From: an uncultured Gammaproteobacteria bacterium
GTDB lineage: Bacteria; Patescibacteriota; Patescibacteriia; UBA2591; UBA6264
NCBI GenBank assembly: GCA_964596735.1
Contig: CAZQVF010000005.1
Location: 13,328-77,327, forward strand
DNA: 64,000 nt
Reading direction: 5' to 3'
This document shows, in pieces, positions 17,232 to 21,019 of the stretch; positions within the stretch are counted from its first letter, which is position 1; the number at the start of each line of letters is the position of its first letter. Both the position numbers and the translations under genes were made by a program. Under the pieces are notes generated by a model. That model made no database searches, was not told the DNA's origin, and was given only the letters and a program-made list of their open reading frames with translations.

Positions 17232-17256
17232 ATATTCTTAGTTAATTGGTTATTTA

Positions 17257-17334
17257 CTGTTAGTATAAGAACCTGCTTCGCAGAACCTTGAAATTAAATT
17301 CTATTATATATAAATTAAGGTAATTTAATTATAA
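17257..17334 (+). repeat. conserved promoter-like element, copy 2 (tandem with copy 3), facing the 3' end of the DGR RT gene
   Basis: AAGAACCTGcttcgCAGAACCTTGAAATTAAATTCTATTATATATAAATTAAGGTAATTTAATTATAA, near-identical to the aspS copy. Confidence 0.5.
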
Positions 17335-17410
17335 GAACCTGCTTCGCAGAACCTACCTGCCGGCAGGCAGGCCTTGAAATTAAATTCTATTGTATAAATA
17401 ATAATGTATT
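17333..17410 (+). repeat. conserved promoter-like element, copy 3, carrying a 20-nt GC-rich palindromic insertion
   Basis: ...CAGAACC[tacCTGCCGGCAGGcaggcc]TTGAAATTAAATTCTATTGTATAAA...ATTATAAA. The perfect 12-bp palindrome is at 17346-17357. Confidence 0.5.
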
Positions 17411-17464
17411 TTAATTATAAAGATTAGAAAAAGCTCGTCAAGTTATCTTATTTTGTAATAATAT

Positions 17465-18442
17465 TTATTCTACTAAACCTACTTTCTTTCTAAATTTATA
17501 CGTATTTCCGTGAATCAATAGTCCTTGATAAGAAATAACTGTCTGTCGTTTTGGATAATTCTTTAATCTTCTAATTATCTTTCGCTTTGTGGTTGTTCGA
17601 ATCTGTCGATAGCATGGAAAATGTATCCAGCCCAAAAAATCTAAACCCGAAGCATAAGTTCTAATACAAACCTTGTGTTGATGAAGTGTCAATTTAAGTT
17701 CTTTTTGTAAAAATTCAGTGATTCTTAACAATAAACCATTGAGATACTCTTTATTGTCCGATAAAATAACGAAATCGTCGCCATATCTAATATAATATTT
17801 CACTCGCAATTCCTGTTTTATATACATATCAAATTCGTGCATATAAACATTAACGAAAAGTTGGGAAGTGAGGTTGCCAAGGGGCAGACCTATCCCCAAA
17901 CGGCTGGAATAAAAACTAAAAACTACCCTTTCAATCAACCGAATAATTTGAGAATCGTTAATGTGTCTCTTTAATATTTTAATAAGGATTTGCTGATCAA
18001 TGTTAGCAAAAAATTTCTGAATATCGCATTTTAGAATATAACAAGTTTGAGAATTATTTTTTGATACCTTCTGGGCAAAATATCTGAATCTGTTCAAAGC
18101 GCGATGCACTCCCTTGTTTTCTCTACACGAATATACATCATAAATAAACTTTCTATCAAAATAAGGACACAGCTCCTTATAAATGAGATGATGTAATAAC
18201 CGATCACGCACCGTAGCTTTGTGAATATTTCTCGGCTTGGGGTCAGAAATATTAAAAGCCGAATATGGTCCGTGAATATAAGTAAAATTAACCAGAGACT
18301 TATAAAGATCTATTAAATTATCGGCCAGCTTTATTTGAAAAATCATCACATCTTTTTTATGTCTTTTACCACACAAAAAACGCTCCCAAGTCGCTAAGAG
18401 ATTTTCTATCTTAATAATATCAATATATTTAACTTTAAACAT
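17465..18442 (-). CDS. DGR reverse transcriptase
   Basis: RT motifs: IENLLATWERFLCGKRHKKDV N-terminus, LPLGNLTSQLFVNVYM (DGR-specific SQ motif), YIRYGDDFVIL (YxDD). ORF track starts at 18511; start at MFKVKY (18442) abuts the divergent avd ATG (CATATG). Confidence 0.9.
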   Translation of the reverse strand: MFKVKYIDIIKIENLLATWERFLCGKRHKKDVMIFQIKLADNLIDLYKSLVNFTYIHGPYSAFNISDPKPRNIHKATVRDRLLHHLIYKELCPYFDRKFIYDVYSCRENKGVHRALNRFRYFAQKVSKNNSQTCYILKCDIQKFFANIDQQILIKILKRHINDSQIIRLIERVVFSFYSSRLGIGLPLGNLTSQLFVNVYMHEFDMYIKQELRVKYYIRYGDDFVILSDNKEYLNGLLLRITEFLQKELKLTLHQHKVCIRTYASGLDFLGWIHFPCYRQIRTTTKRKIIRRLKNYPKRQTVISYQGLLIHGNTYKFRKKVGLVE

Positions 18443-18820
18443 ATGACTACAATATCTGCGCGAGTACCATTGGTGCTTGTTAGAACAAAAAGGGCTTATC
18501 AAATTTGGCACAAAAATTTAGTCAATCTTAATCGACTTGATCGCTATACTATTGGTGCTAAAATCGATGAATATTTTCTATCTTTATTGGAATTAATTTT
18601 TAAGGCCTGTTTTGCTTACGATAAATTTGAAAAACTCTCAATGGTATCACAAGCGATTGGTAAAAACGATTTATTAAAATTCTTTTTACAGATTGGTTGG
18701 GAACAAAAAACCATTAACCATAAAAATTATGGTCTTCTAATACTTTTACTTGATGAAGTTGGTCGAATGCTGGGTGGCTGGAAAAAAAATATACAAGAAA
18801 AAACTCCCGCTAGTAAGTAG
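18443..18820 (+). CDS. avd: Avd-like accessory variability determinant (four-helix-bundle / IVS family), divergent from RT
   Basis: 125 aa, basic. C-terminus LLDEVGRMLGGWKKN resembles the Bordetella phage Avd C-terminus (AEVGRILGSWI), with the helical pattern of the 23S-IVS family. Confidence 0.6.
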   Translation: MTTISARVPLVLVRTKRAYQIWHKNLVNLNRLDRYTIGAKIDEYFLSLLELIFKACFAYDKFEKLSMVSQAIGKNDLLKFFLQIGWEQKTINHKNYGLLILLLDEVGRMLGGWKKNIQEKTPASK

Positions 18821-18840
18821 CAGGAGAAAAAATTAAATAA

Positions 18841-18960
18841 GTCACAGAAGCAGAGCAGGCAGTCGTTATCATCCCAAGCGTTCTCAAAGTTGCCGAGGTT
18901 GAAATTAAAGTCATCATCCGAGTTGCGGTTGACATTCGGCACGCGGTAGTTGCCGTCAGA
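18841..18960 (-). repeat. DGR template repeat (TR)
   Basis: Minus-strand sense translates ...SDGNYRVPNVNRNSDDDFNFNLGNFENAWDDNDCLLCFCD, rich in AAC/AAT codons. Not part of a real gene. The GC-rich end CGACTGCCTGCTCTGCTTCTG is shared with the VR (IMH-like), with one non-A mismatch. Confidence 0.85.
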
Positions 18961-19194
18961 CAATGTACAGCCCGCCACCTTTTTCACTAAGGGTAACGCC
19001 AGTCGCCCTCTGTATTTTATTCTGAGCCAAAATGCTCAATAGCACGCTGCACCGACTGATTTAATTTTTTCATAAAAGGTTGCACTCATTTACTAAGCAT
19101 GCCCAGTAAATTCCTGGCAAACTCCCTTTACGAGAATTCGATGATATAAAGCCATGGCCACATATCCAATCTATTATCCAAAAATATTATACAG

Positions 19195-19238
19195 AAAAAA
19201 TACATAAAAGAAAAGGGTCCTTACATTGGTAAGAACCC
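19195..19238 (-). terminator. hairpin + U-tract downstream of the DGR target gene (terminator; possible DGR homing hairpin)
   Basis: Minus sense GGGUUCUUAC-CAAU-GUAAGGACCC forms a 10-bp stem with one G-U, followed by UUUUCUUUUAUGUAUUUUUU. Confidence 0.55.
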
Positions 19239-19289
19239 AAAGGGTCAAAAAATCCAAAGAACAGGACTAAGAAACCAAGTGCCTAAGCA

Positions 19290-19997
19290 CTAATCGCAGT
19301 CGCAGAAGCAGAGCAGGCAGTCGCTATCATCCCAAGCGTCCTCAAAGGGGCCGAGGAAGAAAATAAAGTCACCAACCGAGTAGCGGTCGACAGACGGCAC
19401 GCGGTAGCTGCCGTCAGAATCGATCCAGAGAGCCTCTTTCTCATCAAACGAGACAGACCAACGGCTCTTTGGCAACTTGTTTTTGGCAAGTTCATAGACC
19501 AGTGAAGCGCCTTGAGCGCCGGCTAAAACAGCTTTCTGAGAATACAGGAAATTTAAACAGTCTTCCGAAGTCACAGTTTCTGTGATATTAAAAACCTTTA
19601 CCTTGAACTTTCTGCCAGGCACGAGCTTTGTTGTCGCTTTGTTAAAGTGCTTATCAGTGATGTCGGAATTGTAGTAATTAAATTCCGAGCCATGCGCTGC
19701 TGCAAAGTCAGTCAAGCGCGTAGCATGGTCGTAACCCTTAGGCACAACAATGTTAAACGCATTGGCCAATTTGAAGCGCGGGTCAGGCATAAACGGTGAA
19801 AGAGCTTGCTGACGTTGTTTCTGTGTCAGATTTAAAAAACATTCATATTCTGGCAAACTCATTTGCCCTTTCTTGATCTTCTGATTGCAATCCATATGCA
19901 GACCAGCCAATTTGGCCGCTTCTGCGCCGATAGATGTCTTATCCATCATTTTCTCCTTTGATACCAAGAGTTTAATAATTGACCCCATGCCAATCAT
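19290..19997 (-). CDS. DGR target protein with C-terminal variable region
   Basis: C-terminal 40 aa (GSYRVPSVDRYSVGDFIFFLGPFEDAWDDSDCLLCFCD) are encoded by the VR. N-terminal portion has no recognised domain; start codon uncertain (several in-frame Met). Confidence 0.75.
   Translation of the reverse strand: MIGMGSIIKLLVSKEKMMDKTSIGAEAAKLAGLHMDCNQKIKKGQMSLPEYECFLNLTQKQRQQALSPFMPDPRFKLANAFNIVVPKGYDHATRLTDFAAAHGSEFNYYNSDITDKHFNKATTKLVPGRKFKVKVFNITETVTSEDCLNFLYSQKAVLAGAQGASLVYELAKNKLPKSRWSVSFDEKEALWIDSDGSYRVPSVDRYSVGDFIFFLGPFEDAWDDSDCLLCFCDCD
19299..19418 (-). repeat. DGR variable repeat (VR) at the 3' end of the target gene
   Basis: Differences from the TR occur only where the TR has A on the sense strand (AAC to AGC, GAC, TAC, TTC, CCC; GAT to GTT, GGT). 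Confidence 0.85.
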
Positions 19998-20095
19998 TTT
20001 CTCAGTATTGATAATATTATGTCATATTTTAGCCTTTTTGTCAACACTCCTATTCCAAAAGACTTAAAATTTATATTAATCTAAAATAAAAACAC

Positions 20096-20125
20096 CGCCG
20101 AGGAGAATCGAACTCCTGAGACGGA
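20096..20125 (-). pseudogene. tRNA 3'-half fragment (canonical T-arm + acceptor 3' strand, no 5' half)
   Basis: Minus sense AGGAG-TTCGATT-CTCCT then CGGCGGTG; no matching 5' acceptor strand within 80 nt. The 14-nt core CCGAGGAGAAT(C/T)GA is directly repeated at 20181-20194. Confidence 0.4.
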
Positions 20126-20201
20126 TTTGCCTTTAGCGGAAAACCTGGCGTCCTACAATGCTTAATAAATTAAAATGGCCCCGAGGAGAATTGAGTGAAA
20201 A

Positions 20202-20890
20202 TTATTTTAATCCACTTTGTAATTTTAACGCGTCAATCCATCCTTTAATTCGAAAAGCTATCTTACGACCATGTACACGTAAATCAAGTGTGCCATATGG
20301 CAAAGAATTGATTGGACGTTTTCTGTTGCTCGCTTTGCTTATTTGTTTAAAAATGCGAAAACGACTTTTAGGAATATTAGTTACTCTAGCCCAAAAATTA
20401 ATGGCAGATTGCTCGCTAATATTAGCATGTATTCTAACACATACTTTTAATTTCTCTTCAGGGACTTTAATAATTTCTCGTAAAAAGCGAAGAAACAACG
20501 CAATCATATAAGGATCAGCATTAACAAAATCAACTACATACCCTTTGTTTTTTTGAGCCTCAATTTTATATCCCTCTGCCCAATAAAGAGCATTTGCAAC
20601 TAATAATAACTCATATTTTGACAACGAATGAATTTCATTAAAAGTCTCCTTCTTTATTCTCTGATTTTCAATCCAAATAGCACGTGTCCGTTGCCGATTG
20701 TTTTCAAATAACCCATGTTCTCGAGCAATTCTCGTTTTTTTTTCTAAAAGCTTTTTTGCTGACTTTGTTAGTTTTAAGTCTCTAAACCAAACGCTAAGCG
20801 AGCCCTTGGAAACACTTAAAGTACGAGCTATTTCATTGTAACTTTTACCCTTTAACCGCAACCTGAGCGCTTTTTGATATTGTGGATGCA
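20202..20890 (-). CDS. hypothetical HTH-domain protein with LAGLIDADG-like motif (possible homing-endonuclease-like protein)
   Basis: HTH segment KGKSYNEIARTLSVSKGSLSVWF; motif LLLVANALYWAEGYKIEAQK...VDFVNADPYMIALFLRFL resembles degenerate LAGLIDADG. ORF track start (20954) overlaps tRNA-Glu, so ATG at 20890 (MHPQYQ) is used. Confidence 0.35.
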
Positions 20891-20908
20891 TAATAATTAA
20901 ATATATAA

Positions 20909-20980
20909 GTAGCGCCAAGGGGAATCGAACCCCTGTTACATGGTTGAAAACCATGTGTCCTGACCACTAGACGATGGCGC
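20909..20980 (-). tRNA. tRNA-Glu (UUC)
   Basis: GGCGCCA acceptor stem (G1-U72), anticodon stem CATGG/CCATG with loop TTTTCAA (anticodon TTC), T-arm GGGGTTCGATTCCCC. Confidence 0.85.
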
Positions 20981-21019
20981 CATTATTATTTAGCGCAATC
21001 TTAGCAAAATTAAACGAAT

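Follow-up and report, generated by a model that had tools for sequence, protein, structure and literature searches.

A DGR of Architecture B3 with a conserved, covarying RNA structure 5' of its template repeat

We show that the window (i.e., the whole 64,000-nucleotide stretch of DNA analyzed here) contains a DGR with a DGR/group II-type reverse transcriptase (RT), a template repeat and variable repeat (TR/VR) pair, a VR at the 3' end of the target gene, a fixed information-transfer boundary, and Avd. Overall, our analysis makes it probable that this is a complete DGR in the B3 layout with a conserved RNA structure 5' of TR, in which TR is carried on a separate structured RNA with its primer/stop strand located 5' of the template. 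The layout flagged by the original prediction changes nothing by itself; it has been published as the norm among CPR DGRs. [quoted passage not shown] The covarying 5' domain, together with a duplex that brackets TR, would offer a concrete model for cDNA priming and stop in B3 DGRs.

Gene order and strands are as originally predicted, with TR and RT on the minus strand and the avd-like ORF on the plus strand between them (Table 1), convergent with TR and divergent from RT. The CATATG at 18440-18445, in which the avd and RT starts stand back-to-back, is seen directly in the sequence. The ATG at 18442 is a plausible RT start, since the ORF opening there encodes 325 aa, and nearly all homologues have this length (one identical 325-aa cluster and >7,900 of the same length class). 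The RT translation contains the motifs LGNLTSQ and YGDD, and its best NCBIfam model is a group II RT/maturase (E=1.8e-37). The target gene had no match in Pfam or NCBIfam. The true start of avd may be the ATG at 18443 or a TTG/GTG downstream at 18470/18473, the latter being possible because the annotation of some homologues begins at the V of VLV; start-codon enumeration was unreliable, and the only measure used was how far the conserved Avd core lies from the RT ATG.

Table 1. Features of the DGR locus in window coordinates (P, paired helices; L, leader hairpins).
Feature	Position	Strand	Details
DGR reverse transcriptase	17465..18442	-	325 aa; RVT_1, 76.9 bits
avd (accessory variability determinant)	18443..18820	+	Pfam bAvd PF22296, 47.5 bits (cut-off 40)
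-10-like GATATT	18451..18456	-	Weak candidate; ends 8 nt before RT ATG
Hairpin H (9 bp) and U-run	18795..18826	-	Stem 18826-18818 x 18812-18804; U-run 18803-18795; terminator scan
Long-range duplex, 3' arm	18827..18844	-	Inner 5 nt form the 3' end of TR
Template repeat (TR)	18840..18960	-	121-nt repeat shared with VR
5' domain P1-P3	18965..19052	-	Closing helix P1 around hairpins P2 and P3
Helix P1	19052-19041 x 18976-18965	-	95% paired; 11/12 pairs covary
Hairpin P3	19012-19006 x 18993-18985	-	93% paired
Hairpin P2	19038-19034 x 19027-19023	-	93% paired
Long-range duplex, 5' arm	19053..19067	-	Pairs with 18827-18844, spanning TR 3' end and flank
Leader stem-loop L2	19079..19124	-	Loop motif GG-YYAYG-GCUU as in L1; RNAalifold
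Leader hairpin L1	19145..19164	-	Loop motif GG-YYAYG-GCUU; RNAalifold, 47 loci
Candidate -10 box TATAAT of TR RNA promoter	19186..19191	-	Proposed from position conservation
Terminator-like hairpin (10 bp) and T-run downstream of target gene	19205..19238	-	Consensus scan
DGR target gene	19290..19997	-	ORF, 235 aa; VR at C-terminal end, covering last ~43 codons
Variable repeat (VR)	19298..19418	-	88% identical to TR

Read along the minus strand, the 121-nt TR and VR differ at 15 positions, 14 of which are TR adenines, with half of the 28 adenines in TR altered in VR. The same adenine-specific pattern occurs in 54 related loci. With 14 adenine-specific changes in VR, information has therefore flowed from TR to VR. 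The boundary of this transfer is sharp and falls at the invariant G18845: 5' of this G, non-adenine TR/VR mismatches number 0-1 per 50 loci while adenine sites differ about half the time, position +1 past it is a fixed difference (TR A vs VR C in 18/21 loci), and TR/VR homology is lost from about +4. The TR/VR pair has a fixed 3' boundary of the IMH / IMH* kind. Adenines are scarce within 14 nt 5' of G18845, and for this reason the cDNA start is not placeable to the nucleotide.

The comparison with catalogues of DGR architecture, proposed along with the original prediction, places the locus in Architecture B3, i.e., TR-(avd)-RT in which avd alone is on the opposite strand, a class that makes up 90% of the CPR DGR set and 126 of the 372 DGRs surveyed in 2018 (Wu et al. 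2018, Nucleic Acids Res 46:11, PMC5758913). The locus matches B3 in the order and strand of TR, avd, and RT without any difference, and this layout is already catalogued as normal for Patescibacteria. All 75 related loci with upstream DNA share this order, with avd directly upstream of RT and oppositely oriented; these relatives are Patescibacteria/CPR of many lineages, all of them metagenome-assembled genomes. Across 55 loci, the order is VR, a gap (median 339 nt), TR, an interval of -21 to 40 nt (median 15), and then the avd stop codon. The layout can be called non-canonical relative to the Bordetella prototype but not for its own lineage. The text of Wu et al. 2018 (PMC5758913) contains 0 mentions of promoters, stem-loops, or RNA structure around TR, and a search of the literature on DGRs with upstream structure or phase variation found nothing relevant; Paul et al. 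2017 (PMC5436926), the principal paper on CPR DGRs, lay outside its scope.

The departure from the Bordetella gene order might alternatively reflect a local rearrangement or a decayed element, i.e., a non-functional DGR whose avd is inverted, or a spurious plus-strand ORF. The avd product does score under the curated cut-off of the NCBIfam model DivGenRetAVD (NF033474; E=4.5e-14, 52.6 bits, cut-off 80), although it exceeds that of Pfam bAvd. We consider these readings scarcely credible, given that the order and strand are shared by every relative with upstream DNA and that the VR changes are adenine-specific. Furthermore, avd has 366 homologues with 68-87% identity among those aligned, and the plus-strand ORF shows purifying selection (dN about 0.2, dS saturated). 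We found neither a minus-strand avd nor a close relative with a co-oriented layout.

The sequence between the target gene and TR, estimated earlier at about 330 nt, measures 329 nt between the stop codon of the target and TR, and 337 nt between VR and TR. Its description as GC-rich did not hold up, as GC content is 39.1% overall vs 33.4% in the window, reaching 45% only in the TR-side third and 33.6% in the far third. The covariance search suggested for this spacer was productive, and aligned sequences show that the gap is not filler but carries about 220 nt of conserved, covarying RNA helices fused directly to TR. Over the 48 structure pairs, 86.9% are paired vs 38-52% in slid controls, with 574 double-change cells (87-168 in the controls) and a covariation score of 0.588 (0.10-0.17 in the controls), and none of 500 shuffles reached the observed structure values; the structure and these pair counts come from one alignment, a dependence that the slid controls and held-out loci mitigate. 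Structures were predicted by RNAalifold with ribosum scoring and then verified by pair counts; without ribosum scoring, the long-range duplex and hairpin H were lost.

Specifically, helices P1-P3, which were recovered again by RNAalifold on alignment A6, form a domain whose closing helix ends 4 nt before TR. Further upstream, every variable pair of leader hairpin L1 covaries across 47 loci (RNAalifold) with one G-U pair invariant, and pair 104/146 of L2 is realized as AU (15), UA (14), GC (7), CG (5), and UG (5). The covariance model of the domain, R1, has a single match in the window (18959-19069, minus strand, 81.1 bits) and matches 17 held-out loci, in each case upstream of TR and on the strand of RT.

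Since the structure lies between the target stop codon and TR, and a terminator-like hairpin follows the target gene, one could assign it to the target gene as part of its 3' UTR or terminator region, or else to a small RNA unrelated to TR. We regard this as very improbable. Two loci (L047 and L060) have their VR and target elsewhere and on the other strand, yet keep the R1 domain directly 5' of TR; P1 almost abuts TR, and the long-range duplex involves the 3' end of TR. Rfam returned no family match for the spacer, the TR flanks, or the junction at either gathering or permissive thresholds.

The long-range duplex joins a box ~95 nt upstream of TR to the TR 3' end and its flank. It is 17/18 complementary in the window and covaries over 55 loci, where 80-83% is paired. 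This short duplex is rich in AU and imperfect at its inner pairs (4/5 paired in most loci), and in a restricted duplex search its per-locus energies were modestly better than those of shuffles (median z -1.5, with 20/55 loci below -2). Unrestricted RNAduplex runs of 200 nt upstream of TR against 48 nt around the TR 3' end yielded only long, weak, non-significant duplexes, and this approach was replaced by alignment-based covariation and the restricted search.

A minus-strand promoter, TTGAGC-N14-TAAAAT, had been proposed just upstream of TR. TTGAGC is located at 19039-19034 and TAAAAT at 19019-19014, a spacing of 14 vs the 16-18 range, and the site is absent from the output of the consensus scan. 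We rejected it as a promoter: TTGAGC is the 5' arm of the covarying helix P2 and TAAAAT falls in a conserved single-stranded junction, and the site would thus appear to sit within transcribed, base-paired RNA. A better -10 candidate seems to be TATAAT at 19191-19186, at a conserved distance: in most of the 55 loci, a -10-like hexamer, often preceded by TG, ends 112-130 nt 5' of the long-range-duplex box.

At the other end, hairpin H (18826-18804) is followed by TTTTTTCTT and has the form of an intrinsic terminator (GC-containing hairpin plus U-run). All 9 of its pairs covary, and a T-rich tail follows it in 53/55 loci (alignment columns). Hairpin H overlaps the avd stop codon and last codons, and the synonymous sites of avd codons K121 and T122 are frozen; conservation of the U-run is partly at the protein level, because it also encodes avd Lys/Thr codons. 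We infer that hairpin H is a terminator-like element, and it is possibly also an analogue of the Avd-binding stem-loop.

These observations bear on the earlier suggestion that TR and RT form one minus-strand transcript with ~400 nt of antisense avd as its spacer, the equivalent of the Bordetella Sp. TR and RT are co-oriented with only avd between them, the prototype spacer lies 3' of TR (bioRxiv 10.1101/2023.10.23.563531), and intrinsic terminators leak, making some read-through into RT plausible. A functional antisense-avd spacer is nevertheless unsupported, and we consider the co-transcript unlikely in view of the terminator-like hairpin and U-run after TR in nearly all loci. In the ~360 nt of antisense avd 3' of hairpin H, RNAalifold found zero consensus pairs, and the synonymous sites of avd follow the neutral expectation with no constraint, except in the last two or three codons. 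Additionally, a -10-like hexamer stands just upstream of the RT ATG in relatives, and a TR-RT co-transcript would be fully complementary to the avd mRNA. Co-transcription of TR and RT is not obligatory according to Wu et al. 2018 (PMC5758913).

At the avd/RT junction, relatives carry TA[AG]AAT at the position of GATATT, just after a poly-G tract. A poly-G or dinucleotide repeat is present at the junction in most relatives but absent from this window. We noticed -10-like clusters within the first RT codons as well, which are perhaps just conserved AT-rich codons, and we claim no avd promoter. Among contigs with identical RT, no variation in poly-G length was seen at the G7 locus P0185, and the RT P0170 occurred in a single place only. 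At P0172, contigs break inside the repeat tract, a suggestive pattern that might also be an artefact of sequencing or assembly.

We propose that TR is transcribed by itself, as a structured RNA of ~380 nt on the minus strand, running from about 19179 to 18797, whose start would be set by the position-conserved -10 box and whose end would be set by hairpin H and its U-run, while avd and RT would be expressed separately from their compact head-to-head junction. The continuous strand 19067-19041, 5' of TR, would form one pairing with the TR 3' end, followed by another with the segment immediately upstream of TR. Given this primer-then-stop topology, cDNA synthesis would begin at the invariant G18845, with its primer in the nearly invariant UUGGUG junction (about 19055-19050), and would stop at P1. 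The segment from about 19179 to 18797 is the predicted minimal RNA for in vitro reconstitution of a CPR DGR. A broader reading, which we put forward tentatively and hold to be somewhat doubtful, is that B3 DGRs in general use a circularly permuted, retron-like template RNA that is separately transcribed and ends at the hairpin overlapping avd, with the primer/stop strand and the remaining conserved helices, a candidate scaffold for protein binding, 5' of TR, and with the junction repeat acting as a slipped-strand on/off switch in most members, though not in the window. The repeat tract, if hypervariable, would represent a regulatory layer on a hypermutation system.

The locus shares with the Bordetella BPP-1 DGR an RT, Avd, and a TR/VR pair with adenine mutagenesis. 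The Bordetella RNA consists of the avd 3' end, TR, and Sp, a ~140-nt spacer 3' of TR that contains the primer, the stop strand, and an RT-binding stem-loop, and its Sp53-70 contributes one strand to the primer duplex, followed by one strand to the cPRT Stop duplex (Handa et al., bioRxiv 10.1101/2023.10.23.563531). [quoted passage not shown] In contrast to Bordetella, avd is on the other strand and occupies the place of Sp, and the conserved ~140-nt RNA 3' of TR is absent, as judged by the lack of consensus pairs and synonymous constraint 3' of hairpin H; the strand forming both duplexes, as well as the other conserved helices, lies 5' of TR. We suggest, by analogy, that the strand 19067-19041 has the same topology and polarity as Sp53-70, but 5' of TR. 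Such a displacement of the RNA scaffold to the 5' side of TR would explain how avd is able to occupy the place of the Bordetella spacer. The analysis of Handa et al. covered only 40 nt upstream of TR (bioRxiv 10.1101/2023.10.23.563531), a range that would miss a box ~95 nt upstream.

With respect to RNA organization, the proposed RNA has a parallel in retrons, although the locus is not itself one: its RT scores 59.5 bits against the retron St85 RT model (cut-off 235), its best families are group II/DGR-type, and it has a TR/VR pair and Avd. The retron msr-msd RNA is a short, separately made non-coding transcript with a structured 5' part followed by the template, and terminal inverted repeats bring the 3' end of the template next to a priming nucleotide located in the 5' part. 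The likeness is limited to this RNA organization, i.e., a structured 5' part and then the template, which the proposed TR RNA would share.

The window contains a complete diversity-generating retroelement (DGR), and its anatomy is as the original prediction described: the template and variable repeats (TR and VR), the reverse transcriptase (RT) and the plus-strand accessory variability determinant (Avd) were all confirmed, as were the back-to-back avd and RT start codons in CATATG (18440-18445). The two repeats differ at 15 positions over their length, 14 of them at TR adenines; the 15th is a T-to-C difference located 5 nt from the TR 3' end. Homologue length places the RT start at ATG 18442: one identical protein has 325 aa, and thousands of homologues range from 323 to 330 aa. 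The Avd ORF also matched NCBIfam DivGenRetAVD (E = 4.5e-14), yet under that model's own cut-off. It has 366 homologues (68-87% identity among the aligned ones), with dN of ~0.2 against close relatives and saturated dS; these values mark avd as a genuine gene kept under purifying selection.

Coordinates of the DGR parts, predicted RNA elements and tandem units in the window
Feature	Position	Strand	Remark
Target ORF	19997-19290	minus	235 aa; VR at its end
VR	19418-19298	minus	121 nt
TR	18960-18840	minus	121 nt; template copy of VR
RT ORF	18442-17465	minus	RVT_1 76.9 bits; motifs LGNLTSQ and YGDD
Avd ORF	18443-18820	plus	Pfam bAvd 47.5 bits (cut-off 40)
Leader hairpin L1	19164-19145	minus	covaries
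Leader hairpin L2	19124-19079	minus	covaries
Long-range duplex	19067-19053 x 18844-18827	minus	RNAalifold
Helix P1	19052-19041 x 18976-18965	minus	RNAalifold; 12 bp
Hairpin P2	19038-19034 x 19027-19023	minus	RNAalifold
Hairpin P3	19012-19006 x 18993-18985	minus	RNAalifold
Hairpin H (post-TR)	18826-18818 x 18812-18804	minus	RNAalifold
Tandem unit copies	17255-17288 / 17321-17354 and 17286-17334 / 17372-17420

Scanning GTDB (one genome per species) with an RT alignment gave 80 related loci, nearly all from Patescibacteria metagenome-assembled genomes. The layout that had been flagged as non-canonical is real, already catalogued and the norm for its lineage rather than an oddity: an Avd ORF lies directly upstream of RT on the opposite strand in 75/75 loci having DNA upstream of RT, and the TR-(avd)-RT order is Architecture B3 of Wu et al. 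2018 (PMC5758913), according to whom DGR components on different strands need separate transcription units. Across the 55 loci with a TR/VR pair upstream (window included), VR comes first and a gap of 234-694 nt (median 339) separates it from TR; the avd stop codon follows, -21 to 40 nt from the TR end (median 15). Among individual loci, L040 pairs one TR with two VR copies and hence two targets, L007 has two RT genes, and in L018 another avd-like ORF occurs ~1.6 kb upstream. In contigs L081-L084, a population with RT protein P0185, gene callers annotated a 379-aa RT over the antisense avd and left avd uncalled; one of these near-identical contigs (L084) carries a 4-nt deletion within avd.

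The avd/RT junction, 5-70 nt upstream of the RT start, was surveyed in 70 related loci (e.g., L086:672-682, L061, L021). In 53/70, the RT strand carries a poly-G tract of 7-13 residues (mode 10); another 9/70 have (GA)n, (GT)n or (CT)n repeats, including L034, in which the repeat was identified by eye. No tract was seen in 7/70, the window (18446-18470) among them, and the site of L052 is N-masked, as is that of L020. Immediately after the tract come a -10-like TA[AG]AAT and then the RT ATG. The tract may represent a slipped-strand phase switch. Contigs from independent samples with RT protein P0172 (L087-L093) end inside the tract in 7/9 places, at G4 to G10 and 22-28 nt before the RT start; either the tract varies in length or sequencing/assembly failed there. 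No length variation was found at a G7 locus (P0185). No paper connecting DGRs to repeats of this kind emerged from our literature search, which did not include Paul et al. 2017. Read on the avd strand, the tract is poly-C and accounts for the 'PPP' in longer Avd annotations. On the RT strand, the poly-G tract is closely preceded by an inverted repeat (18457-18480 in the window, and the same place in relatives) whose sequence changes between loci (e.g., L001, GCACAAGC-GGT-GCTTGTGC; L021, GAGAATTAC-CTGTG-GTAATTCTC); it overlaps the Avd 'PLVLV' codons and was spotted by eye, having been missed by RNAalifold on the long alignment.

Near the DGR (20084-20194 and 20202-20981), the start of an ORF of 250 aa with only weak HTH, sigma-70 region 4 and IS630-like N-terminal matches overlaps a minus-strand tRNA-Glu (20909-20981). 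Two direct repeats just downstream (20084-20111 and 20167-20194) resemble tRNA 3' ends and could represent an integration scar or a tRNA fragment; neither ARAGORN nor Rfam called a second tRNA. A 34-49-nt unit containing the palindrome CTGCTTCGCAG is present in two tandem copies in the stretch (17255-17420) that separates the RT stop codon from a small neighbouring gene.

The gap between target and TR had been described as GC-rich; it is only mildly enriched (39.1% overall vs 33.4% for the window), with 45% beside the TR and 33.6% in its far third. The suggested covariance search of this spacer revealed strongly conserved RNA structure. RNAalifold predicted five elements in an alignment of the 55 loci from TR-135 to TR+65: the long-range duplex, P1, P2, P3 and H. 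Pair counting over these loci showed 86.9% paired cells, 574 double-change cells and a covariation score of 0.588, vs 38-52%, 87-168 and 0.10-0.17, respectively, with partners slid 1-3 columns; 0/500 shuffles reached the observed values. P1 is 95% paired, with covariation in 11/12 pairs. In L083, from the P0185 population, P2 carries paired changes from G-C to A-U. L1 and L2 share the loop GG-YYAYG-GCUU with an invariant G-U pair, and look like a putative duplicated protein-binding site; their loops are near-identical in the window (CGG-CUACG-GCUU). A covariance model of the P1-P3 domain (R1) has a single match in the 64-kb window (18959-19069, minus strand, 81.1 bits), by construction because the window sequence is in its training set. 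It also matches 17/31 held-out loci, always on the RT strand and upstream of TR, and most of those lacking a match lack the upstream DNA. At L047 and L060, the target gene lies elsewhere and the domain still precedes the TR; therefore, it goes with the TR rather than with the target 3' end. No Rfam family matches the gap structure. We interpret the gap as a leader of the TR RNA that is structured and conserved.

The original prediction also envisaged a TR-RT co-transcript with antisense avd as its spacer. Hairpin H is followed by TTTTTTCTT and was reported as terminator-like by a consensus scan, with a T-rich tail 3' of it in 53/55 loci; hairpin and tail reach across the stop codon of avd and into its final codons. 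Only at these final codons are avd synonymous sites frozen (K121 AAA in 100% and T122 ACT in ~87% of loci), those elsewhere following neutral expectation, and RNAalifold found no consensus pairs in the ~360 nt that separate H from the RT start. Together, these observations argue against a functional antisense spacer and leave the co-transcript unsupported; RT could still be fed by read-through. A -10-like hexamer closely precedes the RT ATG in relatives, and GATATT (18456-18451) occupies the same place in the window.

The proposed promoter is likewise unsupported: TTGAGC (19039-19034) forms the 5' arm of P2, TAAAAT (19019-19014) falls within the conserved junction between P2 and P3, and the consensus scan did not report the site, whose spacing is 14. 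Transcription from that point would leave out strands that covary with downstream partners. In most loci, 112-130 nt separate the long-range box from the end of a -10-like hexamer lying upstream, often after TG; the distance is proportionally smaller where gaps are shorter. From position conservation only, TATAAT (19191-19186) would be the better candidate.

In the Bordetella phage BPP-1 DGR RNA (Handa et al., bioRxiv 10.1101/2023.10.23.563531), one Sp strand, 3' of TR, pairs with TR118-121 as a 4-bp primer duplex, priming occurs from A56 with G117 as the first template base, and the same Sp strand then makes the cPRT Stop duplex with a segment just upstream of TR; an Avd-binding stem-loop, commonly of 9 bp, follows the TR. 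In the window, the last TR bases and their flank pair with strand 19067-19041, which then forms P1 with the segment that immediately precedes the TR; the junction UUGGUG is nearly invariant. The long-range duplex is AU-rich, with modest per-locus energies. The template base beside the inner duplex is G in 53/55 aligned loci; 5' of it, 0-1 non-A mismatches and ~50% change at A sites were found (50 loci). Position +1 is a fixed difference, TR A vs VR C in 18/21 loci, and the window's sole non-A mismatch (T18844 vs VR C) falls exactly there. Adenines are few close to this boundary and rarely altered at +2 and +3, and TR/VR homology ends at ~+4. This pattern fits a model in which cDNA synthesis would start at that G (G18845 in the window) and stop at P1.

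The structured leader and the permuted-RNA model it suggests are the parts worth following up. Handa et al. searched 40 nt upstream of TR (bioRxiv 10.1101/2023.10.23.563531), a range that would miss a box ~95 nt upstream. By analogy, the template RNA is probably the Bordetella RNA circularly permuted, its pairing strand lying 5' rather than 3' of TR and the polarity unchanged. The proposed RNA would have a retron-like order, i.e., a structured 5' part followed by the template, with the ends paired.
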